A program made the position numbers and the translations under genes. From NCBI GenBank assembly GCA_963727485.1, contig CAVSGM010000001.1, positions 160,001-224,000 on the forward strand: a stretch of DNA of 64,000 bases. The letters are read 5' to 3'. This document shows, one piece after another, positions 31,850-60,219 of this stretch. Below the pieces are notes generated by a model that was given only the letters and a program-made list of their open reading frames with translations, was not told the DNA's origin and ran no database searches. Source of the DNA: an uncultured delta proteobacterium (GTDB taxonomy: Bacteria; Myxococcota; Myxococcia; SLRQ01). Positions within the stretch are counted from its first letter, which is position 1. Each line of letters begins with the position of its first letter.

Positions 31850-32071
31850 ATGTCGAAGACGTCCTTGAGGCTGCTCGCCGTCGCCCTCGCCGGTCTCGTC
31901 GCCGCGTGCGGTCCCGCGCCCCAGAACAACAACAACGGGGGCGGCGGAGGCGGAGGCGGCTGCACCCAGGTGGCGAACGACATCGTTCTGCCCCGAGGTC
32001 GACGACCCAGGGGCCCGGGCGCCGCCGCCCTTGACCCGCCCGGCGCCGGCCATTACTCGATGCGGCCATGA
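31850..32071 (+). pseudogene. truncated lipoprotein remnant, paralog of the upstream gene
   Basis: GGAGG RBS, lipobox LVAAC; GCTQVANDI resembles GCVQLEKDI of 30608-31732, then the sequence loses protein-like character. Confidence 0.5.
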
Positions 32072-32766: not shown

Positions 32767-32843
32767 CGGGAAGTGGCTCAGCCTGGTAGAGCACCTGGTT
32801 CGGGACCAGGGGGTCGCAGGTTCGAATCCTGTCTTCCCGACCA
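32767..32843 (+). tRNA. tRNA-Pro (anticodon CGG)
   Basis: 77 nt; acceptor stem CGGGAAG/CTTCCCG, anticodon arm CCTGG-TTCGGGA-CCAGG, T-loop GTTCGAATC, encoded CCA. Confidence 0.97.
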
Positions 32844-37380: not shown

Positions 37381-40246
37381 TCAGGGCGCCACGGCGCCGA
37401 GGAGCACCTGCCTGGGCTTGGAGCCGTCGGCGGGCCCCACGATCCCCTCGCGCTCCATCACCTCGATCATCCGCGCCGCCCGGTTGTAGCCGATGGCCAG
37501 GCGCCGCTGGAGGAAGCTGACGCTGATGGCGTCCCGGTCGGCGATGATCGCCAGCGCCTCGTCCCACTTGGCGTCGTGCTCGAGATTCGTCGTCGTCGTC
37601 GCCGCCGCCGCCCTCGTCGTCCCGGGCCTGGAGGATCGACTCGTCGTAGATGGGCTTGCCCTGCTCCTTGAGGTGCGCCACCACCCGCTTGATCTCGTCG
37701 TCGGCGAGGAAGGCGCCGTGGACCCGCAGGGGCTCGGACTGCCCCGGGGGGATGATGAGCATGTCGCCGCGGCCGAGGAGCTTCTCCGAGCCCGGGCTGT
37801 TGATGATGGTCTGGGAGTCGTGGCGGCTCGCCACCCGGAAGCCGATTCGCGCCGGGAAGTTGGCCTTGATGAGGCCGGTGAGGACGTCGGTCGAGGGCCG
37901 CTGGGTCGCGACCATCAGGTGGATGCCGGCGGCGCGCGCCTTCTGGGCGATGCGCGCGATGTAGGTCTCGACCTCCCGGGAGGCGACCATCATCAGATCC
38001 GCGAGCTCGTCGATGATGATCACCACCAGGGGAAGCTTCTCCGGCGGCGGCGGGTCGTCGAGGAGGAAGCGCTCGTGGTCCTCCTTGAGCGCCATGTACG
38101 CCTCGTGGTCCCCGTCGGCGGTCTCCAGGGGCGGCGGGGGGGTGCGGGTCTTCTGCCGCTCCTCCCACTCGGCCCGGCGCTTCTCCGCGACCCGGTTGTA
38201 GCCCGAGAGGTTGCGGACCGAGGTGTCGGCGAGGAGCTGGTAGCGCCGCTCCATCTCGTCCACCGCCCAGCGCAGGGCCAGCGCCGCCTTCGCGGGATCG
38301 TCGACCACCGGGAGCAGGAGGTGGGGGATGCCGTCGTAGAGCTTGAGCTCGGTGACCTTGGGGTCGACCATGATGAAGCGCACCTCGTCCGGGGTGGCCT
38401 TCATCAGGATCGAGGTGATCATGGCGTTGACCGACACCGACTTGCCCGAGCCGGTGGTGCCGGCGATGAGCAGGTGGGGCATCTGGGCGAGGTCGACCAT
38501 GAAGGGCATCCCCTCCACGTCCTTGCCCATGGCCAGGGTGAGCTTGCTCTTCGCCTCGGCGAAGGCGTCCTGGTCGACGATGTCCTTGAGGTGGACGGTC
38601 TGGCGCTTCTTGTTGGGCACCTCGATGCCCACCGCGCCCTTGCCCGGCAGCGGCGCCACGATGCGCACCTGCAGCGCCTCCATGGCCATCGCCAGGTCGT
38701 CGGAGAGCCCGGCGATCTTGGAGATGCGCACCCCGGGGCCCGGGACGAACTCGTACATGGTGACCACCGGGCCCAGGCGGATCTTGCGGACGTCGCCGGT
38801 GATCCCGAAGTCGGCGAGCTTCTGGGTGAGCTTCTTGGCGGTCTCGTGGAGGGCGGCGCGGTCGACGGCCTCCCGGGCCTCCTCGGGGGGATCGTCGAGG
38901 AGGTCGAGGCCGGGGAGGATGAAGGCGTCGCCGTGCTGGGAGAAGGCGAAGGCGTCCTGGCGGGGCCCCCGGGCCGGGCGATCCGGGGCCCGGGCCTCGA
39001 CGATGGCCGGGCCCTCGTCGGCGGGGGCGGCGGGCTGGGGCCTGGCCTCGGCGGGGGCGTCGTCGGCCGGGGCGATCTCCGCCGGCTTGCGGGGGCGGCG
39101 GGGGGGCGCCTCGGCGGCGGCGGCGACCACCGGGGTGGCCTCGACGATGGGCGCGGCCTCGGGCGGGGGCGCGGGGGCGTCGGCGGCCTCGGGGGCGTCG
39201 GCGGCCTCGGCGGCCTCGGCTTCGGCGGCGGCCATCCCGGCGAGGCTCGGGGCCCAGTCGGGATCGGCGTGGGACGGGTCGGCCAGGGGGTCCACCGGCT
39301 CCACGTCGTAGATCGCCTCCACCTCGTCGAGGGGGGCGATGGCCCCGGCCTCGGACGGCGGGGGGGCGGGGAGCGGCGCCGGGGGCGGGGCGTCGGTGAC
39401 CGGGGTCTCGGCGAAGGTCACCCGGACGATGCCCGCGTCGTCGGCCTCGACCCGGGGCGGGGGGAGGGCGGCGCGCTCGGCCTTCCGGCGGGCCCGCTCG
39501 GCGTCGGCGCGGGCCCGGGCCTCGGCGCGGGACTCGGCGCGCTCGGCGGCCCGGGCGGCGCGGAGCTCGGCCCGGCGGGTGCGGGCGTCCCGGTGGCGGG
39601 CCCACTGGAGCCGGGCCAGGTCGAGGCCCCGGCCGGCGAGGCCCCGGAGGCCCCCGGCGGCCAGCCCCCCGAGGTGGGCGAGGGTGAGATCGCTGGCGAC
39701 CACCAGGGACACCAGGACCCCGGCGGTGGCGACGATGGCGGCACCCACGGTGTTCAGCTCGCTGCGCAGCAGCTCCCCGAGGACCAGGCCCAGAACCCCG
39801 CCGGGGCTGTGGGACAGGGGGTGGGCGTGGGGCAGGGCGAGGTGGGCGAGGACGGCGCCGAAGAGCATCAGCGCCCCGTAGCCCAGCACCTCCACCGCCG
39901 AGACGTGGACGGTGCGCCGGGCGAAGAGGGCGAAGGCGACCACCACCAGGGCCAGGGCGACCACGAAGCTGCCCAGGCCGATGGCGGTGAGCATCCCGTC
40001 GGCGACGTGGTGGCCCACCGCGCCGATGAGGTTGCCCACCGGGAGGCCCCGGGCGAGGCGGGCGTCGTCCCCGGCGCTGAACGACGCCAGCGCCAGGGAG
40101 AGGGTGACGCCGAGCGAGAGACACACGATGCCCAGGAGCTCCCGGCGCCGGGGCACCGGGGCCGCCCGGGTCTCCCGACCGGGGGCGGCCCTCTTGGAGG
40201 CGCCCCGCTTCGTCGCCTTGGTCTTCCCTGCTGCCCGTCGCGCCAT
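37381..40246 (-). CDS. ftsK: DNA translocase FtsK (apparent frameshift ~37586)
   Basis: 4TM N-terminus, P/A linker, PHLLIAGTTGSGKS, IDELADLMM, ATQRPS, LLGRGDML; gamma domain LQRRLAIGYNRAARMI in an adjacent frame. Confidence 0.95.
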
Positions 40247-40412
40247 TCGCCGATGCCTCCCAAGGGGTCGCAAGTGGGGCCGTCCGCGCGGCCCGCGCAC
40301 CCCCCGACGCTACCGGCCAGAAGCCGAAGGTCAACTTTTCGACGGGGGGTGCGGGAGGGGCGCCGCGAGTGGTTTTCTTGACCACCCCCCGGGGCCGGCG
40401 AGACTCGAAGCC

Positions 40413-41540
40413 ATGGAACGCGTCGACGGCTCCTGGTTCGTGCCCCCAGAGAACGCCCACGAGGCCGAGGTCACCCCGGCCCCCACCCCGGCGAGGGCGC
40501 CGGTGGACGCCGACCCGGCGATCCTCCTGGAGGAGGCCGGCTGGTCGGTGTCCGAGGCCGAGGCCTGCCTGGCGTCGCCGGCCCTGGCGGCCGCGGCCGA
40601 GGCCGCGCCGGCGGTGGATTCGATCCCGGTGCCCCTGCCCGCGCCCTCGACCGTGGCGACCCTGCCGCTCCCGGCGCCCGCCGCCTCCGCCACCGCCGAG
40701 GCCCGCCTCGCCGACCTGGAGGCGGCGATCGATGCCGCCCTGGTCACCCCGGCGGTGGAGCCCCCCGCCGCCTCCGAGCCCCCCGCCGTCGCCCCCGAGG
40801 CCCACGGCGACGCCATGGCCGAGGCCTTCTTCGCCGCGGGCGACGACCCGCTCCCGGCCCCGGCCCCGGCCCTCGAGGACGACGACGAGCCCGCCTGGGC
40901 CGACGCCCTCGACGCCGACGCCCCCGCCGGCCCGGCCTTCGAGACCCCCGCGGGCCTCGCCGCCGCCCGGACCGCCGACCCGATGCCGGCGCCGAGGTCC
41001 GCCCCGGCCCCCGACGCGATCACCGAGCCCGAGCTCGACGCCGAACCGGTCCCGGCGCCGGCGCGGACCCGGCGCGCCGCCCCGGGCACCCCGCCGGCCC
41101 ACCCGGTGGTCCGGGCCCGGGTCGCCTCGGTCGCCCACCGGGCCCTCGCCTGGCTGGTGGACGGCGCGGTCCTGGTCACCGCGGTCACCGGCACCGTCTA
41201 CGCCGCCGCCCGCCTCGCCGGTCACCCGGGGGGCCTCGCCGCCGTCGCCCACGACCCCCTGCTCCTGGGGGCGGCGCTGGCCTTCGGGGGCATCCTCGGC
41301 CTGGTCTACGTGGGCCTGTTCACGGCGGCCGGGGGCCAGACCTTCGGCGCCCGGCTCGCGGGCATCCGCATCCTCGATCAGCGCGGGGCCGCGCCCACGG
41401 TGGGCCGGGCCTTCGCCCGGGCCGGGGCCGCCGCCCTGGGGACCCTGGCCTGCCTCCTGGGCCTCGCCTGGGTCCTCCTCGACGATCGGGGCCAGGCCCT
41501 CCACGACCGGGTGGCGCGCACCTACGTCGTCGAGGCCTGA
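40413..41540 (+). CDS. RDD-family membrane protein with long acidic/Pro-rich N-terminus
   Basis: RALAWLVD, GQTFG, ALHDRVARTYVV. Confidence 0.85.
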   Translation: MERVDGSWFVPPENAHEAEVTPAPTPARAPVDADPAILLEEAGWSVSEAEACLASPALAAAAEAAPAVDSIPVPLPAPSTVATLPLPAPAASATAEARLADLEAAIDAALVTPAVEPPAASEPPAVAPEAHGDAMAEAFFAAGDDPLPAPAPALEDDDEPAWADALDADAPAGPAFETPAGLAAARTADPMPAPRSAPAPDAITEPELDAEPVPAPARTRRAAPGTPPAHPVVRARVASVAHRALAWLVDGAVLVTAVTGTVYAAARLAGHPGGLAAVAHDPLLLGAALAFGGILGLVYVGLFTAAGGQTFGARLAGIRILDQRGAAPTVGRAFARAGAAALGTLACLLGLAWVLLDDRGQALHDRVARTYVVEA

Positions 41541-41571
41541 TCGGGCCGGGGCCCCCGCCGGCGCCCGCCGC

Positions 41572-42496
41572 CTAGAGCCGGGGCCGGCGCAGGTGCACCC
41601 GGGCCCAGCCGTCGCGGGTGGACCGGCGCACCGGGGTGAGGCCCTGGGCCACGTAGGCGGCCTCGGCCTCGTCGCACTGGTTCTCCAGGAGCCCGGAGAG
41701 GAAGAGGTCGCCGCCCGGGGCCACCCGCGGCGCCACCGTCGGCGCCAGATCCGTGAGCACCCCGAGCTGGATGTTGGCGACCACCAGGTCCCAGAGCCCG
41801 TCGCGGGTGTCCGGGGGGTCGGTGGTGAACTCGCAGCGCTCGGCGACGTCGTTGCGGGCGGCGTTCTCGCCGGCGACCTTCACCGCCATGGGATCGCTGT
41901 CGATGCCCAGGCAGCGCTGGGCGCCGAGGCGGGCGGCGACGATGGAGAGCACCCCGCTCCCCGAGCCCACGTCGAGGACGCTGGGGACCCGGCCGTCCCG
42001 GCGCCAGCTGTCGACCACGTCTTCGACGGCCTCGATGCACAGGGCGGTGGTGGCGTGCGACCCGGTCCCAAACGCCAGCCCTGGATCGAATCTGGAGCTC
42101 GACCAGGTCCGGGTGGTCCTCGGAGGGGTGCCAGCTCGCCCGGATGCGGATGCGGCGGCCCACGCGGACCGGCTTCACCTGCTCCCGCACCTTCTGGACC
42201 CAGTCCTCGGCGGCGACGGTGGAGAAGGCGACGGCGACCTCGGCGCCGGGGTCGCCCTGGTGGAGGGCGGCGACCACCTCGGCGGAGAGCGACTCGGGAT
42301 CGGTCTCGGGGGTCAGCCAGGCGACCACCTGGGCGCGCCCGGAGGCGGGGCCGCTCCCGTCCTCGAAGAAGGTGTCCGAGTCCCGGACCTCGACGCCCCG
42401 GGCGGCGGCACGCATCGCCAGGCCGCACGCGGCATCGGCGAGGGGCTCGGGGACGTCCAGGATGACTTGAAGAAACGTGCTGTCGTCGTCCGCCAT
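41572..42496 (-). CDS. prmA: ribosomal protein L11 methyltransferase (apparent frameshift ~42090)
   Basis: EDW, corrected IDPGLAFGTGSHATT, LDVGSGSGVL, DLVVANI, LSGLL. Confidence 0.92.
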
Positions 42497-42586
42497 GCCA
42501 GCGCAGGGTATCCGGCTTCGTTCCCGGGTGCCACGTTCATGGGGGCAATGTGGCGCCGGTGCGGGGATTGCAGTAGGGATGGAGCT

Positions 42587-43261
42587 GTGACGCCAACCCT
42601 CCGCCTGGCCGCCGCCCTGGCCACCGCCCTCGCCCTGGCCGCCGCCGGGCCCGCCGCCGCCGAGACCGGGGCGCTCACGGCCGAGGCCGGGGGCGGGGTC
42701 GCCTCGCCCGTCCTCACCGCGCCCTACGTCTCCGGGCACCCGGCCCTCGCCGCCGCGCCCGGACCGGCGGCCTTCGCCGGCGTGCGCTACGCCCTCACCG
42801 ACGACCTCGAGCTCGGCCTGCGCCTCTCGGTGACCACGCCGGTGGTCGTGGATCACGTCTGGTCCGCCGGCGCCGGGGACCAGCGCCTCCTGGAGCATGG
42901 GTTCCAGCAGACCGCGGCGCAGGCCCTGTGCCGCCGCTACCTCGCCGGCCTCGACTGGCGCCTCTTCGTCGAGGGGAGCCTCGGCTGGGACCACCGGCGG
43001 TACTTCTCGGTGCAGCCCTACCAGGTGGTCGGCGGCCAGGCCTCGAGCCTGGGGGTGCCCCTGCCCGGCTTCGCCGTCGACGACGTGCTCGTCTCGGTGG
43101 GGCCGGGGGTCGAGTACGTCTGGGACCACGCGGCGGTGGGCGTCCGGGCCGAGGTCGACGCCCGCATCGGGCCGTCGGTCAGCGGCTCGGCCCCGCACCC
43201 GGTGGGCGTGGGCTGGGGCTTCGGCGCGACCGTGTACGCGGCCTGGAGCTTCTATCCCTGA
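42587..43261 (+). CDS. small outer-membrane beta-barrel-like protein
   Basis: GGAG RBS + GTG, signal peptide, amphipathic strands, aromatic C-terminus YAAWSFYP. Confidence 0.6.
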   Translation: MTPTLRLAAALATALALAAAGPAAAETGALTAEAGGGVASPVLTAPYVSGHPALAAAPGPAAFAGVRYALTDDLELGLRLSVTTPVVVDHVWSAGAGDQRLLEHGFQQTAAQALCRRYLAGLDWRLFVEGSLGWDHRRYFSVQPYQVVGGQASSLGVPLPGFAVDDVLVSVGPGVEYVWDHAAVGVRAEVDARIGPSVSGSAPHPVGVGWGFGATVYAAWSFYP

Positions 43262-43417
43262 TCCGGGGGGCCGACCCGGGCTCCCCCGGACGGGCGATGC
43301 ACAGCCTCCGCGCCACCCGACAAGGGATCTCCTGGGAGGATCGGTGGCCGGAACGTGGGGGTTCGCATCGGCGCCCGAGGGGGAGACCGGGTGTCGACGA
43401 GACGGCCAGGCGGGTTG

Positions 43418-43576
43418 ATGCTGCCGTGGGGCGCCCTGGCGGCCCTGGCGCTCCTGGCCGGCTGCCCGGGCACGGCGGCCGGACCCCCGGCCCAGGACGC
43501 GGGCATCGCCGACGCGGGCATCGCCGACGGCGGCGCGAACCACCAGGTGGGCCTCGGACCCAACGCCAGACCGTGA
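43418..43576 (+). CDS. very short lipoprotein (52 aa), possibly an internally deleted remnant
   Basis: Lipobox LLAGC, 15-bp repeat encoding DAGIA x2. Confidence 0.45.
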   Translation: MLPWGALAALALLAGCPGTAAGPPAQDAGIADAGIADGGANHQVGLGPNARP

Positions 43577-43607
43577 GGCGCCGGTCGGTGCCATCGAGGA
43601 GCAGGCC

Positions 43608-44280
43608 ATGACGAGCCTGAAGACGACCCGCGCGATGGCGGTGGCCCTCCTGACCCTCGCGCCCTGGGCGGGGGCCTGGGCCACCCCGCCGGCGGCGCCG
43701 GCCTACCTGCCCATCCAGGGATACCTCACCGACGCCTCGGGGCAGCCGGTCAACGGCCAGGTCGACGTCACCGTCTCCCTCTGGCCCGGGCCCACCGGCG
43801 GCACGGCGCTCTACCAGGAGACCCAGACGGTGCAGGTGGACCAGGGGAGCTTCAGCCTCTACCTGGGCCAGAACGCCTCACCGCCCCTCGACCTCTCGAT
43901 CTTCCGGGACCGCGCGACGATCTTCGTGGGGGTGAGCGTGGACGGAGGCCCGGAGGTCCAGCCGCGCTACCAGCTCGCCACCACGCCCTACGCCGGCTTC
44001 GCCCAGTTCGCGGGGACGGTCGACTGGTCGGGCGTCACCAACGTCCCCTCGAATCTGGGGCAGGGCGGAGCCCTCGGCGGGCTCTCCTGCGCCAGCGGGC
44101 AGGTGGCCAAGTGGAACGGCAGCGCCGGGGCGAACCTGACACTGACCGGGACCACCTTCGTACCGCCCGGGACCGCATATGCCTTCCATGTCTATATGAC
44201 GGACACGCAGACAAACGTCCCCAACGACGCCTTCTTCGGCTGCCAGGTCGACTACTCGACCACCCGGCTGCAGGCCCTGA
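43608..44280 (+). CDS. secreted protein with fibre-protein-like N-terminal domain (stop restored by a 1-bp correction at ~44274)
   Basis: GAGGAG RBS, signal peptide, IQGYLTDASGQPVNG...LYQET...FSLYLG...PRYQLATTPYA; removing one G at 44274 gives ...LQP-TGA. Confidence 0.6.
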
Positions 44281-44498
44281 CCCGACGCGCGCAGGTGCGG
44301 GTGCTCCCAGTGCAGCCCGGTGAGCAGCCAAGCCTCCAGCACCTCGCCCTCGTCGGGCTCGAAGTCGTCGAGAGGCACCTCCTCGGCGAAGACCTCGTCG
44401 CGGACCCGCGAGAAGCTCGAGCCACCGCAGCCACCGCAGCTCGCCGGGATGCCGAGGTCGTAGGTGCGTACGCCGCAGTCGATGCATTCCCACCACAT
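44252..44498 (-). CDS. small rubredoxin/zinc-ribbon-like protein (~81 aa)
   Basis: AAGGAG RBS; WECIDCG...CGGCGG, acidic linker, EAWLLTGL; the same 1-bp correction gives a stop at 44252. Confidence 0.6.
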
Positions 44499-44614
44499 GG
44501 CGTTGCTCCTTGGCTTCCCCCTGGCTCTCCAATTAGACACCTTGGTCCCAAAACCAACAAGCGGCCGGCCGGGCCGTTGACACGCCTGCCCCGCGGCTGC
44601 GACAACCCGCTCTC

Positions 44615-45805
44615 GTGTCGCACCCGTTGGACTTCATCGATGACGCCCTCGCCAAGCTTGATCGGGCCGAGCTGCGCCGGGTGCTCCACCCCATCACCGG
44701 GGGGAGCGCCGCGGAGATCGTCCTCGACGGCAAGCGCTACCTCGACTTCAGCTCCAACGACTACCTGGGGCTGGCGCGCGACGCGCGACTGGTGGCGGCG
44801 GCGAAGGCGGCGCTCGATCGCGACGGGGTCGGGTCCGGGGCCTCGCGCCTCATCACCGGCCACCACGACGCCCACGCGTCGTTGGAGGGGGCGCTCGCCT
44901 CGCTGAAGGGTACCGAGGCGGCGCTCTCGTTCAACAGCGGCTACCACGCCAACCTCGGCACCATCCCCGCCCTGGTGGGCGAGGGCGACGTCGTCCTCTC
45001 CGACGCCCTCAACCACGCCTCGCTCATCGACGGGGCGAGGCTCTCCCGGGCGCGGATCGAGGTCTACCACCACGGCGATCTCGACGACCTGGCCCGGGCG
45101 CTCGCCGGGGCCCGGGGGAAGCGGCGGCGCCTGGTGCTCACCGACGCCCTCTTCTCCATGGACGGCGACCTCGCGCCCCTCGAGGGCATCTGTGATCTCG
45201 CCGAAGCCGAAGGCGCCATGGTCATGGTCGACGAGGCCCACGCCACCGGGGTCTTCGGCGCGCGCGGCGCCGGGGTCGCCGAGCACCTCGGGGTCTCGGA
45301 TCGGATCGCGGTGCAGATGGGGACCCTGGGCAAGGCGCTCGGGGCCTTCGGCGCCTACGTCGCCGGGGAGCAGCGCCTCCGCGACTACCTGGTGAACCGG
45401 GCGCGGAGCTTCGTGTTCACCACCGGGCTCCCCCCGGCCGTCGCCGCCGCCGCCGAGGCCGCGGTGGGGCTGGTGCGCGAGGACGCCGCGGGCCTCCGGG
45501 CGCGCCTGTGGCGCAACGTCGCCCGCTTCCGCGCCGGCCTCGACACCCTGGGCCTCGACTACCGCCGCTCGCCCTCGCAGATCTTCCCCATCATGGTCGG
45601 GCCGCCCGGGGAGACCATGGCGGTCTCGGCGGCGCTCAAGGACCGCGGGATCTACGCCCACGGCATCCGCCCGCCGACGGTCCCCGAGGGCACCGGCCGG
45701 GTGCGCATGACCCTCCGGGCGACCCACACCGAGGCGCACATCGACGCCGCCCTCGAGGCCCTCGAGGACGTCCTCGGCCCCCGCCGCCGCGCCGCCGGCA
45801 CCTGA
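44615..45805 (+). CDS. bioF: 8-amino-7-oxononanoate synthase
   Basis: FSSNDYLGL, GSGASRL, NHASLIDG, FSMDGD, DEAHATG, GTLGKALG, IRPPTVP. Confidence 0.95.
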   Translation: MSHPLDFIDDALAKLDRAELRRVLHPITGGSAAEIVLDGKRYLDFSSNDYLGLARDARLVAAAKAALDRDGVGSGASRLITGHHDAHASLEGALASLKGTEAALSFNSGYHANLGTIPALVGEGDVVLSDALNHASLIDGARLSRARIEVYHHGDLDDLARALAGARGKRRRLVLTDALFSMDGDLAPLEGICDLAEAEGAMVMVDEAHATGVFGARGAGVAEHLGVSDRIAVQMGTLGKALGAFGAYVAGEQRLRDYLVNRARSFVFTTGLPPAVAAAAEAAVGLVREDAAGLRARLWRNVARFRAGLDTLGLDYRRSPSQIFPIMVGPPGETMAVSAALKDRGIYAHGIRPPTVPEGTGRVRMTLRATHTEAHIDAALEALEDVLGPRRRAAGT

Positions 45806-45846
45806 CCCTGCGCCCGCCGCCTCGAGCCCCCGCCGGAGCGACTCCC

Positions 45847-47115
45847 ATGTCCGATCGCCACGCCCACCTCGTCGACGTCGACACCCACCACGTCTGGCAC
45901 CCCTTCACCCAGATGGCCGACTGGATGGGCACCGAGCCGCTGATCATCGAGCGCGGCGAGGGCGCCTGGCTCTTCGACGACCAGGGCAACCGCTATCTCG
46001 ACGGGGTCAGTAGCCTCTGGGTCACGGTGCACGGCCACCGGCGCCCCGAGATCGACGACGCCATTGGCGCCCAGCTGGGTCGCCTCGACCACTCGACGAT
46101 GCTCGGGCTGGCCAGCGTCCCCTCCATCGAGCTCGCCGAGCAGCTCCTGAAGGTGGTCCCCGAGGGGCTCACCCGGGTGTTCTACAGCGACAACGGCTCC
46201 ACCGCGGTGGAGGTGGCGCTGAAGGTCAGCTACCAGTACTGGCAGCAGCAGGGGCGCCCCGAGAAGCGCACGTTCGCGACCCTGAAGGAGGCCTACCACG
46301 GCGACACCATCGGCTCGGTGTCGCTCGGGGGCATCGACCTCTTCCACGCCACCTACAAGGCGCTGCTCTTCGACAGCTTCAAGCTCGACCCCTTCGACGC
46401 CGAGGGCCTGGAGGCCCTCTTCGCCGAGCACGCAGGTGAGCTGGCGGCGGTGATCATGGAGCCTTTGATGCAAGGCGCCGCCGGGATGATCGCCCACCCG
46501 CCCGGGTTCCTCACCCGGGTGCGCGAGCTCTGCGACGCGCACGAGGTGCTCCTGGTCCTCGACGAGGTGGCCACCGGCTTCGGGCGCACCGGGAAGATGT
46601 TCGCCTGCGAGCACGAGGGCGTGCGCCCCGACGCCCTCTGCGTCGCCAAGGGCATCACCGGCGGCTACCTGCCGCTGGCCGCCACCGTGTTCTCCGAGCG
46701 GATCCACGACGGCTTCCTCGGCGAGGGCCAGACCTTCTTCCACGGCCACACCTACACCGGCAACCCGCTCGCCTGCGCCGCGGCGCTGGCGAACCTGAAG
46801 CTCTTCGAGACCGACCGCACCCTCGAGAAGCTCCAGGGGCGCATCGCCCAGCTCACCGCCGGGCTGGAGAAGCTCGCGGCCCACCCCAAGGTGAAGGAGA
46901 TCCGCCAGCGGGGCTTCATGGTCGGCCTCGAGCTCGACTACCCGGAGACGGTGAAGATGGCCCACGAGGTGTGCATGAAGGTCCGGGAGCGCGAGCTCAT
47001 CCTCCGGAACCTGGGCAACGTGGTGGTGCTGATGCCGCCGCTGTCCATCACCGAGGACGAGCTCGCCCACCTCCTGGAGGTGCTGGGCTGGGCCATCGAC
47101 GCCCTGTGCGGCTGA
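45847..47115 (+). CDS. bioA: adenosylmethionine-8-amino-7-oxononanoate aminotransferase
   Basis: WHPFTQM, SSLWVTVHG, SDNGSTAVEVALK, YHGDT, DEVATGFGRTG, AKGITGGYLP, HGHTYTGN. Confidence 0.95.
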   Translation: MSDRHAHLVDVDTHHVWHPFTQMADWMGTEPLIIERGEGAWLFDDQGNRYLDGVSSLWVTVHGHRRPEIDDAIGAQLGRLDHSTMLGLASVPSIELAEQLLKVVPEGLTRVFYSDNGSTAVEVALKVSYQYWQQQGRPEKRTFATLKEAYHGDTIGSVSLGGIDLFHATYKALLFDSFKLDPFDAEGLEALFAEHAGELAAVIMEPLMQGAAGMIAHPPGFLTRVRELCDAHEVLLVLDEVATGFGRTGKMFACEHEGVRPDALCVAKGITGGYLPLAATVFSERIHDGFLGEGQTFFHGHTYTGNPLACAAALANLKLFETDRTLEKLQGRIAQLTAGLEKLAAHPKVKEIRQRGFMVGLELDYPETVKMAHEVCMKVRERELILRNLGNVVVLMPPLSITEDELAHLLEVLGWAIDALCG

Positions 47116-47261
47116 GGCGAGTCGCACCCCAGGCCCCCCGAGATGAGTTCGGCCGGCACCGGCACCGACACCTCGTCCGCGCACCCCCACTCTTGGCGTG
47201 CGGACGTATGTCGATGCCGGGCCAGCCGTGGGTCCTCACCCGGCCTGGAACTGCCGTCCCC
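47114..47261 (-). ncRNA. candidate rod-shaped small RNA
   Basis: Nested stems 47129-35/47242-48, 47150-57/47221-28, 47159-71/47208-20, 47174-85/47195-206; several G-U pairs only on the minus strand; starts ~12 nt after a sigma54-type promoter. Confidence 0.5.
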
Positions 47262-47270
47262 GGGCAACGA

Positions 47271-47287
47271 TGCGGGGGACGTGCCAA
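47271..47287 (-). promoter_or_regulatory. sigma54-type promoter TTGGCACGTCCCCCGCA
   Basis: TGGCACG at -24 with GG-N10-GC spacing. Confidence 0.6.
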
Positions 47288-47407
47288 CCGTGCCGGGATC
47301 CCGCCAAGCCACTGGCACCACAGGGGAAGGTGCCCACAGGTGCCCTGAAACCGGGCCCGCCAGGGCTCGCTGAGGGGGCTGAATCAGGCAAGACGCGCGC
47401 CGATTCC

Positions 47408-47422
47408 TGCGTGATACGCAGC
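47408..47422. promoter_or_regulatory. palindrome CTGCGT-N3-ACGCAG, possible enhancer-binding-protein site
   Basis: Perfect 6-bp inverted repeat ~120-135 bp upstream of the sigma54-type motif. Confidence 0.35.
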
Positions 47423-47571
47423 ATCTGCGCACTTCTGCGGCCCGCCGGCCCGGACGCAGGACGGCCGGCGCCGGTCCCGCCCCACCTCCCCGCGCGCCGA
47501 AGTCCACCGTGCGTCGGAGGGCGGGCCCGGGACCGGGCCGGCCGTGGTCGTTCCGAGGCCTGGTCGTCAGG

Positions 47572-50145
47572 CTACGGCAGGCTCGTCTGCGGCCGGATGA
47601 GGCCGGTGGTGTCCCCGCCGATGTCCTCGATGCTGTCGTAGAGGAGCTCGCCCATGTAGGCGAAGTTGTGGGCGAAGGCGCCGGGGTCCTTGGTGGCGAA
47701 CTGGAGGTTGAAGGACGCCTTGAGCAGCGCCGGGGTCCAGGCCGAGTAGGCGTTGGCGAACACCGCCTCGGTGGCGTCGCAGCTCCCGCTGGAGTCGGTG
47801 TCGTTGAAGAAGTACGGATAGGCCGCCGGGTCGTAGCAGATGGGGTTGCCACCGGCGATCGACACGGTGCTCATCGCGGCGACGAGCTTCTGGCGCAGCC
47901 CCTCGAGCTGATCGTGGAGGGTGGTGGTCGCCGGGTCGTTGTCGTAGTTGGCGTTGTGCCGCATCACGATGTCCTGAACGTTGGTGATCGAGGTGTGGCA
48001 GATCTGGCAGGTGGCGACGTTGTCCTGGGGCCGGAAGGTGTGCTTGGTCTTCACCGGGTCGTGGCAGAGGGTGCAGCTGGTGCCCGGCGGGTGGGTCCAC
48101 GTGGCGGCGTAGCTCTTGCCGTCGTACTCGTAGCCGACCTTTCCGTCGTCACCGAGGAGGGTCGCCGCCGCCGGCAGGTAGTGGATGTTCACGAAGCCGA
48201 GGGTGCCCGAGGCGATCTTGGCGTCGACGCTGGCCTTCGACTCGCGACCCTGGTGGCAGGTGGCGCACATGTTGGAGTCGTTGTCCTGGAGGCTGGTGGT
48301 CACGCCGCTCGGGAGGGTGACCGTGGGCACCTGGATCCGGGTGAAGGTCTGCAGGTTGTCGTGGCAGGTCTCGCACTGGAGCCCGTTGGCCTGGGCGATG
48401 GGCACCTCGGTGCCGGTCCCGTACTCCAGGAAGAAGTGGAAGCCGGTGGCACCGCCGTGGCAGCGGGAGCAGCTCGCCGACACCGCGCCGTCGGCGTCCC
48501 AGTGGCGGAACTGCTCCGCCGAGCCCTGGAAGTGGCCGAAGTCGGTGCGGGTCAGCCCGGTGACGTTCGCCGGGTTGAGGTCGTTCATCGAGTCGTACAT
48601 CAGCTCGATGACATACTTGGCGTTGTGGGCGAAGGCGCCCGGGTCCTTGGTGACGTACTGGAGGTTGTAGGTCGCCCGCACCAGCCGCGGCGTCCAGGTC
48701 TTGTACCCGTTGGCGAAGACCGCCTCGGTGGCGTCGCAGGCGCCGTTCCCGTCGGTGTCCTTGAAGAAGTAGGGGTAGGTCGCCGGGTCGTAGCAGATGG
48801 CATCGGCGCCGGTGAGGCCGGTGGCGTAGGCCTGGATCGCCGTCAGCAGCTGGGTGCGCAGGTGGTCGACCTCGTGCCAGATGCCCTCGGTGGTGTCGCC
48901 GTTGCCGTCGTAGTCGATGGCCGCCGAGCTCGCCATCCGGATGTTCTTCAGGTCGTCGACGGTGGTGACGCCCGTGTGGCAGGTCTCGCAGGCGTCGAGG
49001 CGGATCTTGAGCGTGTGCTGGTCGTGGCAGCCGACGCACGAGTCGCGGGTGGACACGTGGGCGAAGCGCACGTCGTAGCTCTGGCCGTCGTACTGGTAGC
49101 CGCCCTGCACCAGGCCGCCGTTGAGGGTGGCGCCGGCGGCGAAGTAGTGGACGTTGATGAACCCGAGGCTGGTGTCGATGGTGTCCGGGGCGGCGGTGGT
49201 GGGCACCGCGGTGTTCACGCTCACCGTGGACTCACGCCCCTGGTGGCAGACCATGCACCGCGCCGAGCTGTCGAGGTTGGAGACGGTGGCCCCCGAGGGG
49301 AAGGTCACCGAGGTGAGCTTCTGGGCGGCGGCGCTGTGGCAGGCGTTGCAGGTGATCACCTCGCCCACCGGCACCGCGTGGTCCACCGTGCCCACCGCGC
49401 TCCCGTCGTCGCCGAGGTAGTCGCGGTAGCCGCTGGTGGTGTGGCACCGGGCGCAGGAGGTGGGCACCTCCGGCGGGTCGTCGGCGTTCCAGTGGGTGAA
49501 GGGCTCGGCGGTGGCCAGGGCGTGCCCCGACCCGGCCCAGGCGTCGTAGTTGGGGATCTTGGTGGGATCGATCCCGGGCTCCAGGATCACCACGCCCACG
49601 TCGCCCTTGGCGCCGGTGTCGGCGCCGGTGGCGGTGACCACCGCCTCGCCGGGCCCGACCGCGGTCACCAGGCCGGTGGCATCCACGGAGGCGACCTGGT
49701 CGTCGCTCGAGGCCCAGGTGTAGCCGGAGTCGGTGCCGTTGGTGGTGGTGGCGGTGGCCTGGGTGGTGCCCCCGATGGCGAGCATGTAGGTGGTGACCGC
49801 GGCGGCGACCGTGGCGGTCGGCGGCTCGGTGAGGACCGCGACGCCGTGGCTGGCGGCGGCGGCGGTGTCCTTGCCGGTGACGCTGATCTTCGTCTCACCG
49901 GCGGCGACGCCGGTGACCTTGCCGGTGGCGTCGACGGTGGCGATGGCGGTGTCGGCGCTCGACCAGGTGTAGCCCGAGTCGGTGCCGTTCACCGTGGTGG
50001 CGGTGAGCTTGAGCGTCTGGCCCACCTGGACCGAGACGTCGCCGGCGATCTGGACCACGGGCGTGGCCTTGGTGCCGGCGCAGGCGGTGACGAACGAGAG
50101 GCCGAGGAGCAGGACGCTCCTGGACCAGAGGCGATGACGGCGCAT
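47572..50145 (-). CDS. decaheme c-type cytochrome lipoprotein: 2 Ig-like (Big_2) domains plus a duplicated pentaheme module
   Basis: Lipobox FVTAC; two TWxSxD..ATVDATG.VT domains; 10 CxxCH (CARCH, CNACH, CMVCH, CVGCH, CETCH / CSRCH, CETCH, CATCH, CTLCH, CQICH); each half ends DPGAFAHN..Y..EL.YDS; GGAGG RBS. Confidence 0.92.
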   Translation of the reverse strand: MRRHRLWSRSVLLLGLSFVTACAGTKATPVVQIAGDVSVQVGQTLKLTATTVNGTDSGYTWSSADTAIATVDATGKVTGVAAGETKISVTGKDTAAAASHGVAVLTEPPTATVAAAVTTYMLAIGGTTQATATTTNGTDSGYTWASSDDQVASVDATGLVTAVGPGEAVVTATGADTGAKGDVGVVILEPGIDPTKIPNYDAWAGSGHALATAEPFTHWNADDPPEVPTSCARCHTTSGYRDYLGDDGSAVGTVDHAVPVGEVITCNACHSAAAQKLTSVTFPSGATVSNLDSSARCMVCHQGRESTVSVNTAVPTTAAPDTIDTSLGFINVHYFAAGATLNGGLVQGGYQYDGQSYDVRFAHVSTRDSCVGCHDQHTLKIRLDACETCHTGVTTVDDLKNIRMASSAAIDYDGNGDTTEGIWHEVDHLRTQLLTAIQAYATGLTGADAICYDPATYPYFFKDTDGNGACDATEAVFANGYKTWTPRLVRATYNLQYVTKDPGAFAHNAKYVIELMYDSMNDLNPANVTGLTRTDFGHFQGSAEQFRHWDADGAVSASCSRCHGGATGFHFFLEYGTGTEVPIAQANGLQCETCHDNLQTFTRIQVPTVTLPSGVTTSLQDNDSNMCATCHQGRESKASVDAKIASGTLGFVNIHYLPAAATLLGDDGKVGYEYDGKSYAATWTHPPGTSCTLCHDPVKTKHTFRPQDNVATCQICHTSITNVQDIVMRHNANYDNDPATTTLHDQLEGLRQKLVAAMSTVSIAGGNPICYDPAAYPYFFNDTDSSGSCDATEAVFANAYSAWTPALLKASFNLQFATKDPGAFAHNFAYMGELLYDSIEDIGGDTTGLIRPQTSLP

Positions 50146-50259
50146 GTTCCCCTCCCCGTGCGGACCGACCCGGCCGACGTTCGTCCGCGTGGGGGGACGT
50201 CGACTGCTCCGGTCCGGGAATGACGCGTGCCAGGAGCAAGTTCCTGACGCGGGGCAGCG

Positions 50260-50276
50260 TGCGCGTCGCGTGCCAA
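50260..50276 (-). promoter_or_regulatory. sigma54-type promoter TTGGCACGCGACGCGCA
   Basis: TGGCACG with GG-N10-GC spacing, ~115 bp upstream of the cytochrome ATG. Confidence 0.6.
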
Positions 50277-50349
50277 CCGCGCCCGGGTCCCCGGAGGGCC
50301 CCCGGGCGGCTTGCGGCAACGCCGACCCTGGGGTTTGGTAGCCCCGGAA

Positions 50350-52618
50350 ATGGGCGCATCGTTCCTGGAAGATCTGAACCCCGAGCAGCGGGAGGCGGCG
50401 GCCCACGTCGAGGGGCCCCTGCTCATCCTCGCCGGGGCGGGATCGGGCAAGACGCGCGTCATCACCCACCGGATCGCGCACCTCGTGCGGACGGAGGGCG
50501 TCGCCCCTGGGGAGATTCTCGCCGTCACCTTCACCAACAAGGCGGCCGGCGAGATGCGCCGGCGCATCGGCGATCTCCTGGGGTGGGCGGCGGCGTCGGC
50601 GGTGTGGGCGAGCACCTTCCACAGCGCCGGGGTGCGCATCCTCCGCCGGGACGGGCACCACCTGGGCCTGCCCCCCAACCTGGTGGTCTACGACGACGCC
50701 GACCAGCGCGCCCTGGTCCGCCGCATCACCCGGCAGCTCGGCCTCGACCCCGCGATGTACCCCGACCGCCAGCTCCTCTCGCGCATCGACAAGGTCAAGA
50801 GCGCCGGCGGGGGCCCGGGCGACCTGGAGGTCTCCCTCTTCGACCCGGTGGGGGAGAAGGCGCGGGTGGTCTTCGAGCACTACCAGAAGGCCCTGCGGGC
50901 GGCGGGGGCGGTGGACTTCGGCGACCTGCTGGTGGAGTCGGTGCGCCTGCTCGAGACCGTGGACAGCGTGCGCGAGCGGCTACCAGCGCGAGCTGCGCTT
51001 CGTCATGGTCGACGAGTTCCAGGACACCAGCCCGGTGCAGTACGCCCTCATCCGGCTCCTCGCCGGGCCCCGCAAGAACCTGGTGGTGGTCGGCGACGAC
51101 GACCAGGCCATCTACCGCTGGCGCGGCGCCGACATCCGCAACATCCTCTCCTTCGAGCGCGACCATCCCGACGCCAAGGTGGTGCGCCTCGAGCGCAACT
51201 ACCGCTCCACCCAGGTCATCCTCGACGCCGCCCACGCGGTCATCGAGCGCAACCGCGAGCGCAAGGACAAGCGCCTGTGGACCGACCGGGACGGGGGCGA
51301 GCTCATCCAGGTGCTCCAGGTCTCCGACGAGCAGGACGAGGCGCGCCTGGTCGCCGCGCGCCTCGATGACCTCGCAGGGCGCCACCCCAGGCGCGAGCTC
51401 GCGGTCTTCTACCGGGTCAACGCCCAGAGCCGGGTCCTCGAGGACGCCCTGCGCGCCGCGCGCATCCCCTACCACGTGGTCCGCGGGCGCTCGTTCTACG
51501 ACCGCGCCGAGATCAAGGACCTCACCAGCTACCTGCGCCTCTCGGTGAACCCCCGCTCCGACGCCGACGTCCTCCGGGTGATCAACACCCCCCGTCGGGG
51601 CCTGGGCAAGAAGACCGTCGAGCGCCTCCAGTCGGCGGCGCTGGCGGCGGGGACCAGCCTCTTCGAGGTCCTTCAGACCGGCCTCGACCTCCCGGAGGTG
51701 AGCGCCGCGGCCCTGAAGAAGCTCCACCGGTTCCGGGACCTGGTCGCCGGGCTCCACGCCCAGGTGGTGGCCGACCGGCCACCCCAGGACGTGGTCGAGG
51801 CGGCGATCACCGAGTCGGGCTACGCCCGGGCCCTCACCGACGAGGGCACCGAGGAGGCCGCCGAGCGCCTGGAGAACCTCCAGGAGATGATCAACGCCGC
51901 CGCCGCCCGCGCCGACGAGGGCAAGAGCCTCATGGACTTCCTCGACGAGATGGCGCTCACCGGCGACGCCGACGACGCCACCGACGACGGGGACGCGGTG
52001 AGCCTGATGACCCTGCACGCCGCCAAGGGCCTGGAGTTCGACGGGGTGGTCATCGTGGGGATGGAGGAGCGCACCTTCCCCCACGGCCGCGCCTTCCAGG
52101 GCTTCGACGGCTTCGAGGAGGACGAGGCGCAGATGGCCGAGGAGCGGCGCCTCTGCTACGTGGGCTTCACCCGGGCGCGCCGGGAGCTGCTGCTCACCTG
52201 CGCCCGGACCCGGTTCCTCCACGGGCAGCGCCAGGTGCGGAGCCCCTCACGCTTCCTCGGCGAGATCCCCCCGGAGCTGGTGGCGGGGGTGCCGGTGGCG
52301 CCGTCCTGGGGCACGGCCCAGGGTTTCGGGACCCAGGGGGGCTTCGGCGCCACCGGCCGCGGCGACCTCGACGACGACCTCGCCGACGAGCCCGAGCTCG
52401 GGGAGGAGGACGGGATCGTGGTCGACTACGCCTTCGACCAGCGGCCGGCCGGGGAGGGCGGCGGCGTGGCCGCCCGGGGCCGACGGGTGCGCCACCGGAC
52501 CTTCGGCACCGGGGAGATCCGCTCGGTCGATGGGCGTGGCCCCCAGGCCCGGTTGCTGGTCCACTTCGAGGGGGTGGGCACCAAGAAGATCCTGGCTCGG
52601 TACGTAGAGCTGATTTGA
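50350..52618 (+). CDS. pcrA: ATP-dependent DNA helicase PcrA/UvrD (apparent frameshift ~50980)
   Basis: LNPEQ, AGAGSGKT, TFTNKAA, VDEFQD, VGDDDQAIY, NYRST, TLHAAKGLEF, EERRLCYVGFTRA, C-terminal Tudor-like VRHRTFGTG. Confidence 0.93.
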
Positions 52619-52662
52619 GCCGAGCTGTGTGTTAACGTCCCAACTTTACGGGGCATTTGTCG

Positions 52663-53935
52663 ATGCGGGTAGGCTGTCCACAGTGTGGTACCCAGTATGA
52701 GCTGCCGGCGACCCAGCTTCGGCCGGGCCTGAAGGTGAAGTGTCGGCGGTGCAGCCTGGTGTTTGCGCCGACGCCGGCGGCGCCTGGGGCCCCGGAGGCG
52801 CCGAAGCCCGCGGCGGCCGGTGTGCCGAAGCCCGCGGCGCCGTCGGCGCGCCCTGCGCCGGCGACGGGCCTCTCGGATCTCGACAATCTCCCGGAGGATC
52901 CCTACGCCGGCCTCGGCGCGGCGACCGGCGCGTCCCCCTCCCCGCGGGCCCCGGCCCCTGCGTCCCCGGCGCCGCAGCGCTCCGCCGCTCCGTCCTCCCC
53001 GGCCCCGGACGCCGGTGGTCTCGGGGGCCAGCTCTTCGGCGATCTCGGGCGCCGCCTCCACCGAGGCCGGCGACGATCCCTTCGCCGGCATCGACGTCGA
53101 CGTGTCCGTGGAGACCGCCCGCCCGGGCGGGGTCCGGGCCGAGGGGATGTCGACCATCCGCGCCCAGCAGAACCCGGCGTCCGCGGCCCCGTCGACGCCC
53201 GCGGCCGAGGGCCCCGCGGGCACCGGCTGGCTCCTGCGCACCGGAGAGGGCGCCGTCCTCCGCCTCGACGACCTGGAGCGGGTGCGTGCCTGGATCGGCG
53301 CCCACCCCGACACCCCGGTCGAGCTCTCCAGCGACGGCAACCACTGGCGGGCCCCGGAGGCGATCCTGGGCATCGCCGCCGAGCCGCGGCCGGCCAGCGT
53401 CCCCCGGGGCACGCCGCTGGGGGGGACGCCGCTCGGGGGCACCCCCGTCACCTCCGGGCCCAGCTCCGCCCTGCGCGCCGGCGCCTCGGCGCCTCGGGAT
53501 CCCGATCGCGCCGGGCCGGTGTGGGCCCTGGTGATGCTCGTCTCCACCGCCGTCGCCGTCGCCGCCGGCGGCGTCGCCGCCCAGGCCCTGCACCTGGTCG
53601 ATGTCTCGGGTACCGTGCCGCTCGGTCGCCTGGGCCTCGCGCGCTTGGTCCCCGTCGAGCCCCCGCCCCCCACGGTGGCCGCCGCCGAGGCGCCGACCCC
53701 GGCGAAGGCCTACGCCTCGGCCCTGCGCGACGCCCGCGCCGCCCGCCAGGCCGGGCACCTGGTCGACGCCGTCGTCGCCTACCGCCGGGCCCTCGCCGCC
53801 CGCACCAGCTCCGAGGCCCTCGAAGGCCTCGCCGACACCTACGCCCTCCTCGGCGACGCCCCGCGCGCCGAGGCCGCCCGCCGGCGCCTCTCGACCCTCG
53901 ACGGGCACGCCGGCAAGAAGGCCGGGGGCCCCTAG
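52663..53935 (+). CDS. MJ0042-type zinc-ribbon membrane protein with C-terminal TPR (apparent frameshift ~53047)
   Basis: CPQC...VKCRRC...F; W-rich domain (VRAWI...ELSSDGNHW), TM helix, TPR-like helix pair. Confidence 0.75.
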
Positions 53936-53941
53936 GAGATC

Positions 53942-56152: not shown

Positions 56153-56168
56153 TCTCCAGGAGATTCCC

Positions 56169-56483
56169 ATGTCGGACAGCGGCAAGCCCAGCACGCAGGA
56201 AGACGAGTACTTCGCCAAGGAGCAGGCGGAGAAGCTTCGCAAGCTGGCCCTGGAGCGCCATCGCAAGCTCGAGGCGGCCGAGCGGGAGGCCCAGAAGCAG
56301 GCCCACTACATGCGCTGCCCCAAGTGCGGGGACGAGCTTCACACCATCCACTTCCGGGAGATCGACGTGGACCGCTGCTTCAACTGCGGCGGCACCTGGC
56401 TCGATCAGGGGGAGCTGGAGAAGGTGGTGGCCAAGGAGGGCGGCGCGGTGACCGAGGCCATCCTCAACTGGTTCCGCGCCTGA
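56169..56483 (+). CDS. zf-TFIIB-type zinc-ribbon protein
   Basis: EDEYF N-terminus, MRCPKCG...VDRCFNCGGTWLDQGEL; AGGAG RBS. Confidence 0.88.
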   Translation: MSDSGKPSTQEDEYFAKEQAEKLRKLALERHRKLEAAEREAQKQAHYMRCPKCGDELHTIHFREIDVDRCFNCGGTWLDQGELEKVVAKEGGAVTEAILNWFRA

Positions 56484-57386
56484 TCAGGCGCGGGTGAAGT
56501 CCGCCGGGGTCGGCGCCTCGATCACCAGGCGCACCCCGGTGACCGGGTGGCGCAGGGCGAGGCGGGACGCGTGGAGCATCAGCCGGGGGGCGGCCGGCCC
56601 GCCGTAGAGGGGGTCGCCGACCACCGGGTGCCCCAGCCAGGCCAGGTGCGCCCGGGCCTGGTGGGTGACCCCGGTGACGAGCTCGATCGCCACCAGGGTG
56701 TCCTCGCCCACCGTCTCCAGGGCCCGCCACCGGGTGAGGGCGGGCCAGGCGTGGCGCACCCCCACCGTGCCCTCGGGGGCCGGGATCATCCGCCGCTTGT
56801 GCCGGGCGCGGCCCAGCGGCACCTCCATCGTGCCCTCGCCCTCGAGGCGTCCGGCGACCAGCGCCAGGTAGTCCTTGTCCACCTGGCGGGTCTCGAAGGC
56901 GTCGCGGACCGCCGCGAAGGCCTCGGCGGTCCGGGCGAAGAGGAGCACCCCGGAGGTGGGGACGTCGAGGCGGTGGCAGAGCCCCGGGGCCAGCGGCAGG
57001 TCCCCGACCGGGGCGAGGTCGGGGAAGCGGGCGAGGACCGCCCCGGCGACGCTCCCGGGCTCGTCCGGGGCCAGGGGGTAGGCGGGGACGCCCGCGGGCT
57101 TGTCGACGGCGATGAGGGCGTCGTCGGCGTGGAGGATCGACAGGGCGAGGTCCGGGGCCGGGGCGGCGCCGGCGGCGTCCTCGAGGCCCAGGAGGACGAC
57201 CTCGGCCCCGGGCCGCGCCAGGTCGGCGCCCCTCACCCGCCGGCCGTCGAGGCGCACCCGCCCGGCGTGGAAGGCGGCCTTGAGGCGCCGGCGGCTCACC
57301 CCCGGGAGCAGGCCCGAGAGGGTGGTGTCGAGGCGCCCGTGGGCGTCCTCGGGGAGGGTCAGGGTGCGGGGGCCGTCGTCGCTCAC
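56484..57386 (-). CDS. RluA/RluD-family pseudouridine synthase with S4 domain
   Basis: GRLD S4-like N-terminus, VDKPAG, HRLDVPTSG, TGVTHQARAH, GHPVVGDPLYG, LHA. Confidence 0.9.
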   Translation of the reverse strand: MSDDGPRTLTLPEDAHGRLDTTLSGLLPGVSRRRLKAAFHAGRVRLDGRRVRGADLARPGAEVVLLGLEDAAGAAPAPDLALSILHADDALIAVDKPAGVPAYPLAPDEPGSVAGAVLARFPDLAPVGDLPLAPGLCHRLDVPTSGVLLFARTAEAFAAVRDAFETRQVDKDYLALVAGRLEGEGTMEVPLGRARHKRRMIPAPEGTVGVRHAWPALTRWRALETVGEDTLVAIELVTGVTHQARAHLAWLGHPVVGDPLYGGPAAPRLMLHASRLALRHPVTGVRLVIEAPTPADFTRA

Positions 57387-58246: not shown

Positions 58247-58304
58247 GGCAAAGGCATCGCACAGTCCGGCCCCGGTGCGAAGCGGTCGGCGCGCCCCGGC
58301 GCCG

Positions 58305-60219
<1,915 letters not shown>

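Follow-up and report, generated by a model that had tools for sequence, protein, structure and literature searches.

A rod-shaped hairpin between bioA and a decahaem cytochrome gene in an uncultured myxobacterial genome: a candidate small RNA behind a sigma-54-type motif

Introduction

The biotin-synthesis gene bioA and a decahaem cytochrome gene converge on a short spacer in the genome of an uncultured delta proteobacterium (Myxococcota; Myxococcia; SLRQ01), and the bioA side of this spacer is occupied by a long, almost fully paired hairpin, designated HP2. The question raised by this locus is what such a structure is for and, if it is transcribed, from which strand. The locus lies within a stretch of 64,000 nucleotides, referred to as the window (assembly GCA_963727485.1, contig CAVSGM010000001.1, positions 160,001 to 224,000). 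An earlier note on the letters of the window had proposed an undescribed small RNA (sRNA), transcribed from the minus strand behind a sigma-54-type promoter and possibly co-regulated with the cytochrome. The results presented here establish HP2 as a real, single-copy, non-coding structure. The candidate sRNA is a reasonable hypothesis, not a finding.

HP2 is a strongly folded, non-coding structure

The 149 nt from 47114 to 47262 fold on the minus strand with -97.2 kcal/mol, compared to -71.95 ± 4.06 kcal/mol for shuffled sequences (z = -6.22), and on the plus strand with -76.7 kcal/mol (z = -4.00). On neither strand did any of 200 shuffles equal the native energy, so that the comparison with shuffled controls proposed in the earlier note came out in favor of the hairpin in both directions. 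The core alone (47125-47252, 128 nt) yielded -87.5 kcal/mol (z = -6.95) on the minus strand and -72.0 kcal/mol (z = -5.76) on the plus strand. All five helices named in the note's description of a nested hairpin of ~150 nt downstream of the promoter motif are present in the fold. Two forms were found. A continuous rod that includes the helix GGGUGAG/CUCAUCU has an energy of -96.2 kcal/mol, versus -97.2 kcal/mol for the minimum free energy (MFE) form, in which two tiny side hairpins stand in place of that helix. Both forms have 55 pairs and the loop AAGAGUGGG; the internal loops are small, without a large central bubble. As described earlier, the hairpin ends at the bioA stop codon: its outermost pair ends at 47116, one base past the stop.

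The minus strand was also favored by the wobble pairs. There are eight G·U pairs on this strand in the rod and seven in the MFE form (at least five had been claimed) and a single A·C opposition, and the resulting 8:1 asymmetry (two-sided binomial P = 0.039) points to the minus strand.

None of five reading frames in the spacer has a coding signature. Their G+C content at third codon positions (GC3) was 0.59 to 0.76, compared to 0.97 to 0.98 in bioA, bioF, and the cytochrome gene, and a hidden small open reading frame in the spacer was rejected on this basis.

HP2 among the structured loci of the genome

The standing of HP2 within its genome was assessed with a census of structure in non-coding-like DNA, defined by loss of the codon-position periodicity in G+C (1.02 Mb, 18% of the genome). 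This mask recovered the spacer as 47122-47608. RNALfold with z-scores was applied to both strands of the 3,704 segments that were 130 nt or longer (together 885 kb), and non-overlapping loci of at least 90 nt with z ≤ -3.5 were counted as structured; the counts rest on a crude mask and on z-scores from a support vector machine. Because a ranking by raw MFE was dominated by segments with a G+C content of 0.86, z-scores were used instead. A fast diagonal-match census missed HP2 and was not used.

HP2 ranked 5th among 735 structured loci genome-wide (z = -7.10, minus strand). When each strand was ranked by itself, it took 4th place among 493 loci (minus) and 40th among 486 (plus). Twenty stretches, which hold 21 of the other top 22 loci, were scanned with Rfam; four overlap tRNA, 5S, or 16S genes, indicating that the census finds real RNAs, and the other 16 had no Rfam match.

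The genome contains many further unexplained rod hairpins. Two rods with the same structure lie in tandem ~220 nt apart (G000:C3:24041-24137 and 24265-24361). Another same-structure pair is distant (G000:C1:114343-114463 and 1251785-1251905), and its 70-nt upstream flanks are identical, which indicates a repeated element. The z-scores of these two pairs were -6.5 to -7.0, and no member had an Rfam match. The most extreme structure in the census (z = -9.0) is a 90-nt rod on the minus strand at G000:C2:1697168-1697257, located 29 nt past the stop codon of a plus-strand gene, with folding energies of -54.3 (minus) versus -37.5 (plus) and only a sub-threshold microRNA (miRNA) match in Rfam.

HP2 itself belongs to no known RNA family. 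At the gathering score, the only Rfam match in the whole window was a tRNA (32767-32840), and with E values up to 10 the region from 46900 to 47700 yielded four matches far below threshold (three miRNA families and one Burkholderia sRNA). HP2 is also single-copy in the 5.55-Mb genome. Both BLAST and a covariance model built from the sequence and fold of HP2 (150 of 931 candidates scored) recovered only HP2, so neither method found dispersed copies of the kind produced by miniature inverted-repeat transposable elements (MITEs) or repetitive extragenic palindromes (REPs). A BLAST match of 39 nt (88%) to the 5' arm at C11:256134, within an acyl-ACP thioesterase gene, was rejected as a further copy and attributed to chance similarity in DNA with 73% G+C. 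The earlier note had listed four outcomes that would speak against it. Three of these, folding no better than shuffled sequence, dispersed copies, and an Rfam family, were examined, and none refutes the sRNA reading.

A sigma-54-type motif in a block resembling the region upstream of the cytochrome gene

The string that the earlier note had taken for a minus-strand promoter is present, in a spacer that is non-coding by GC3. On the minus strand, TTGGCACG (47287-47280) is followed by six bases and GCA (47273-47271). This arrangement, here called motif B, has the canonical GG-N10-GC spacing and thus puts the expected start near 47260, one or two bases at most from where the pairing of HP2 begins.

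Motif B is contained in a block (B) that resembles a block upstream of the cytochrome gene (A). The local alignment of the two covers 41 columns with 32 identities, and its score of 35 was reached by none of 500 shuffles (23.0 ± 2.9). Of the nine columns that differ, four are in the 6 nt separating the -24 from the -12 element. The genome (5.55 Mb) contains the 11-mer CGGTTGGCACG at just two places, 47280-47290 and 50269-50279, each on the minus strand. The 19-nt pattern GGTTGGCACG-N6-GCA was found 12 times in 150 other genomes of the class, compared to 34 times for a reversed control, and never twice in any of them; the A/B pair is therefore particular to this locus and does not represent a motif of the class at large. 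Both copies carry C at -14. Loose motifs were located in non-coding-like DNA more often with C at -14 (34 of 76) than with G there (15 of 73; Fisher P = 0.0018). HP2 was also considered as a copy of the cytochrome 5' leader, and this was rejected as not significant (82 and 23 of 500 shuffles reached the scores).

Sigma-54-type motifs are also found upstream of related cytochromes. Homologues with 30 to 53% identity were found at 20 metagenome loci. The full-length homologues nearest to the cytochrome are among these. In two of them (L045 and L046, 53% identity), a canonical sigma-54 promoter sequence, TGGCACGCCGGCTGCA, is located ~60 nt upstream of the ATG (L045:3811 and L046:559), and in a third (L044), TGGCTTGGGGTTTGCT is located ~95 nt upstream of the start, so that the equivalent place is occupied in three homologous loci. 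The L046 locus has a further cytochrome-like gene on the same strand, 175 nt downstream.

Several related strings were encountered elsewhere in the genome. Three tandem copies of a 22-nt unit containing TTTGGCACGGCCACGCTCGCCG are present at G000:C1:606910-606954 (minus strand). Many of the matches to the loose pattern in non-coding-like DNA read TGGCAC-N5-GGCGCC (for example at G000:C1:560358, C1:1023403, C2:1144908, C3:54313, and C3:503658), which may represent a distinct motif, palindromic in part, instead of sigma-54 promoters. The sequence TGGCAC(G/A)CCGGTTGC(T/C)CTA is common to four canonical sigma-54 sites (G000:C1:1065725, C2:1354766, and C2:1772851 on the plus strand, and C5:50797 on the minus strand); the one at C2:1354766 is just past an activator gene (PF00158, C2:1353738-1354241).

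A predicted sigma-54-driven rod RNA and the points against it

The reading that we favor, tentatively and at somewhat below an even chance, is a predicted minus-strand unit in which a sigma-54-type start at ~47260 would yield a rod RNA of ~145 nt, ending at or just past HP2 and co-induced with the cytochrome. Both copies of the block would be targets of an enhancer-binding protein, and RNA polymerase carrying sigma-54 would start near 47260 at copy B. HP2 would need a start of its own because another hairpin, HP1, comes right after the cytochrome stop codon. The nascent RNA would then zip into the 55-pair rod. As there is no U tract, the rod itself is proposed to end or stall transcription just before bioA. 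In the most speculative step, the rod would act in cis as the antisense partner of the 3' tail of the convergent bioF-bioA message, to which it is complementary throughout. Alternatively, the rod might merely insulate bioA from minus-strand transcription.

A number of observations weigh against this proposal, the first of which concern the promoter. The -12 element of motif B is CCGCA, not TTGCW, and positions -15/-14 are CC, not TT. On a position weight matrix from 32 canonical-type sites of this genome, which fixes T at -14 by construction, motif B scored 9.3 bits and copy A 0.2 bits, compared to 10.3 to 26.5 bits for the training sites, and 191 coding-like sites scored at least as high as motif B. 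Judged by the genome's own canonical sites, the putative promoter is weak. The loose motif occurs in the window at chance frequency (5 seen versus 3.6 expected), and only one of the top 150 structured loci, HP2, has it within 90 nt upstream, compared to 1.6 expected by chance. No gene for an enhancer-binding protein (PF00158) is present in the window; the genome has ~31.

Further points concern the RNA. Between 46900 and 47800, no terminator-like site with a U tract was found on either strand, and the nearly fully paired rod leaves little single strand for pairing in trans. Folding energy also gives no indication of direction in this genome: among 55 stop-adjacent hairpins in tandem gene contexts, the asymmetry favored the strand of the upstream gene in 28 and the opposite strand in 27. 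When the spacer was compared by BLAST with 40 relatives, the only matches were short, G+C-rich ones to the HP1 region, and the HP2 covariance model (R1) found no homologue in 150 genomes of the class at E values up to 0.1 (stricter filters; 20 candidates in each genome scored).

Other searches for comparable loci gave similar results. The plasmid and phage collections had no HP2 match, so that a conserved structured RNA is not represented by any homologue in the relatives, class genomes, plasmids, and phages searched. Among the 12 metagenome cytochrome loci with downstream sequence, no comparable combination of promoter and rod was found, and a TGGCAC-N4-CTGC string at L030 has the wrong spacing. 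A bioA-anchored scan of genome contigs returned only distant bioA genes from other phyla; both the metagenome and the genome contig collections exclude records very near this genome.

The interpretation in the earlier note is partly supported. The shared word extends to a block of 41 columns, and homologous cytochromes have sigma-54-type motifs, but the motif is weak, and its occurrence near a hairpin is at chance level.

Alternative explanations

HP2 might instead be a transcript-end hairpin that stops or caps the bioF-bioA message on the plus strand, and maybe also cytochrome read-through on the minus strand, with block B silent or incidental. This explanation is a possible one that we regard as somewhat doubtful. 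The core stem begins 11 nt past the bioA stop codon, a placement with a chance of ~3.6% if it were uniform in the spacer, and the plus strand still folds with -72 to -77 kcal/mol (z = -4.0 to -5.8). U-tract terminators are at chance level in this region (2 versus 3.0 expected in 40000-59999), and other stop signals must therefore exist. Two of the four family relatives, G003 and G002, have bioA (66 to 69% identity), and in both this gene leads straight into a PF04452 (RsmE-type) gene without an intervening hairpin, so that a new end signal would be required in this lineage only. The cytochrome gene, moreover, has HP1 in the mirror position. However, 55 pairs are far above the length of terminator stems, and the wobble asymmetry favors the strand opposite bioA. 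Strong structures are not enriched at stop codons either. A first count (69 of 145) had suggested that long hairpins mark gene ends in this genome, but the placement control removed this impression (62 of 136 strongly structured loci near a stop codon versus 71.4 expected). The likeness of block B to the region upstream of the cytochrome gene is also left unexplained. The transcript-end function and the favored sRNA are compatible, as one rod could cap the bioA message and also form an antisense minus-strand RNA.

It is unlikely, in our estimation, that HP2 is a relic of rearrangement, a decaying fold-back duplication formed where the bioA-linked rsmE was lost and the cytochrome locus gained, with block B a dead partial copy of the promoter. 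The bioA-PF04452 adjacency in relatives, where this genome has the spacer and the cytochrome gene, places a break in synteny within 11 nt of the hairpin. G003 and G002 each have two PF04452 matches, and the single match in this genome lies 750 kb away. None of the four other genomes that make up the order yielded the cytochrome gene (E values up to 1e-40), and HP2 is an orphan in all collections searched. Neutral decay, however, predicts equal numbers of G·U and A·C, not eight to one, and HP2 still ranks near the top of the census. The differences between A and B cluster between the promoter elements and are not evenly spread. An rsmE pseudogene in the spacer was not detectable (best tblastn E = 0.88), and the cytochrome gene, with a GC3 of 0.98, is fully adapted to the composition of its host, which speaks against a recent event.

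It is very improbable that HP2 is what remains of a mobile element (a MITE- or REP-like palindrome) or of a recombination site, with A and B as att-like direct repeats on either side of an inserted cytochrome cassette. HP2 does come close to a palindrome, the entire cytochrome gene lies between blocks A and B, which are repeated in direct orientation 2,989 bp apart, and that gene was not found in the relatives from the order. However, HP2 is single-copy by both methods, has no plasmid or phage match and no visible target-site duplication beside its stem, the flanking bioA, cytochrome, and UvrD-type helicase have no detected integrase or transposase domain, and the composition of the cytochrome gene is fully host-like.

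Features of the locus and its neighborhood

The positions of the features discussed are listed in Table 1.

Table 1. Features of the bioA-cytochrome locus, in window coordinates
Feature	Position	Strand	Remarks
bioA	45850..47115	+	last gene of bioF-bioA; start approximate; stop codon 47113-47115 abuts the hairpin
Intergenic spacer	47116-47571		456 nt between convergent bioA (+) and the cytochrome gene (-)
HP2, long imperfect hairpin	47116..47261	-	55 pairs; core stem 47127-47250; loop AAGAGUGGG at 47186-47194
Block copy B	47262..47302	-	41 columns; resembles the block upstream of the cytochrome gene
Sigma-54-like -24/-12 motif B	47271..47287	-	TTGGCACG-N6-GCA; predicted start ~47260
Mid-spacer	47303..47460		no significant structure
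HP1, 85-nt hairpin	47461..47545	-	begins 27 nt past the cytochrome stop codon
Decahaem lipoprotein cytochrome gene	47572..50145	-	Big_2, MtrC/MtrF-like, and cytochrome c7 domains; 10 CXXCH
Block copy A	50252..50291	-	TGGCACG-N6-GCA at 50260-50275; about 115-130 nt upstream of the cytochrome ATG

The product of bioA matched TIGR00508 with 526.6 bits (cut-off, 405) and was also assigned by Pfam; its upstream partner on the plus strand, bioF, matched TIGR00858 with 465.6 bits. The cytochrome gene runs on the minus strand from an ATG at 50145 to a stop codon at 47572, and the count of CXXCH motifs agrees with the decahaem label it had been given earlier. HP1 folds with -71.2 kcal/mol on the minus strand (z = -3.75) and -65.8 kcal/mol on the plus strand (z = -3.11) and is likely the end of the cytochrome transcript. 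The whole spacer folds with z-scores of -5.8 (minus) and -5.7 (plus), compared to -0.37 (minus) and -0.88 (plus) for 47320-47460 in the mid-spacer.

A divergent spacer of 205 nt is common to the cytochrome gene and a UvrD/PcrA-type helicase gene (50350-52618, plus strand). The helicase gene is split into two reading frames with a break near 50970-50995: positions 1 to 212 of PF00580 are in frame from the ATG at 50350, and positions 206 to 270 together with the C-terminal domains are in the frame 50378-52615. The split is a frameshift, from either an assembly error or a pseudogene.

Elsewhere in the window, strongly structured stretches (32169-32731, plus strand; z = -4.7 to -5.2 in the plus-strand scan) lie just upstream of its sole tRNA gene, in an interval (32035-32748) of ambiguous coding status. 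Raw folding energies in the window were lowest (-94 to -101 kcal/mol per 140 nt) for segments with 0.83 to 0.88 G+C at 19.8-20.3, 27.9-28.0, 35.2-36.6, and 39.0-41.2 kb, which are probably low-complexity coding sequence.

Implications

Should the RNA prove real, myxobacteria would have a second activator-dependent RNA, different in structure from the first and linked not to development but to a multihaem cytochrome of the cell surface. It would also be a clean example of an RNA gene that arose from a duplicated promoter beside a rearrangement junction. In a bolder version, which we consider distinctly improbable, duplication of the promoter would have created a new RNA gene: a copy of the cytochrome sigma-54 promoter would drive the 145-nt rod, perfectly antisense to the 3' hairpin of bioF-bioA, and the rod would pair with the biotin-synthesis transcript and destabilize it upon cytochrome induction. 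If true, extracellular electron transfer and cofactor synthesis would be coupled through a cis-antisense RNA in this uncultured myxobacterial lineage. HP2 would be ordinary if it turned out to be just a transcript-end hairpin or a relic. At present HP2 is one orphan locus in one genome, and as such a cheap and well-defined target for a transcript map.

Comparison with known systems

HP2 does not belong to any named family: it matches no model, has no adjacent activator gene, and is one rod. The earlier remark that its shape recalls 6S RNA but its context does not was borne out. HP2 resembles 6S RNA in its rod-like form and in a length of ~150 nt or more. It is not a 6S RNA, however, as it has no large central bubble and no Rfam 6S match, and its genomic context differs. 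With REPs and MITEs it shares the form of an imperfect palindrome in an intergenic spacer, but its own genome has only one copy and none was found in the 150 class genomes.

Like a terminator, HP2 is a G+C-rich hairpin between convergent genes that begins 11 nt past a stop codon and can fold on both strands, and hairpin terminators without U tracts do occur in G+C-rich bacteria. However, it has 55 pairs instead of roughly 5 to 15, and its wobble pairs favor the opposite strand. With no run of T residues, it was rejected as a canonical intrinsic terminator, although its position after the bioA stop codon would fit.

The closest myxobacterial comparison is Pxr of Myxococcus xanthus and its relatives (RF01812), also a small non-coding RNA. 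Pxr depends on sigma-54 and an adjacent activator gene, whereas HP2 has no adjacent activator gene and its -12 element is non-consensus. Canonical TGGCAC-N5-TTGC sites are present in this genome. The Pxr covariance model had no match at the gathering score in the window, nor at E values up to 10 in 46900-47700. The passages on Pxr in one source make no mention of sigma factors (PMC11928866), and another describes Pxr as three stem-loops (PMC5684412), compared to the single rod of HP2.

Outside the myxobacteria, the nearest parallels in regulation are Qrr, GlmY/GlmZ, and CrcZ, to which HP2 has no Rfam relation. These are sigma-54-dependent sRNAs, short non-coding transcripts from activator-dependent -24/-12 promoters that are co-regulated with a physiological module, and they have single-stranded seed or protein-binding motifs and defined terminators. 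HP2, in contrast, is almost fully paired, without a U tract or a known partner. What it would share with these RNAs is the proposed logic, in which an activator-dependent -24/-12 promoter drives a short RNA.

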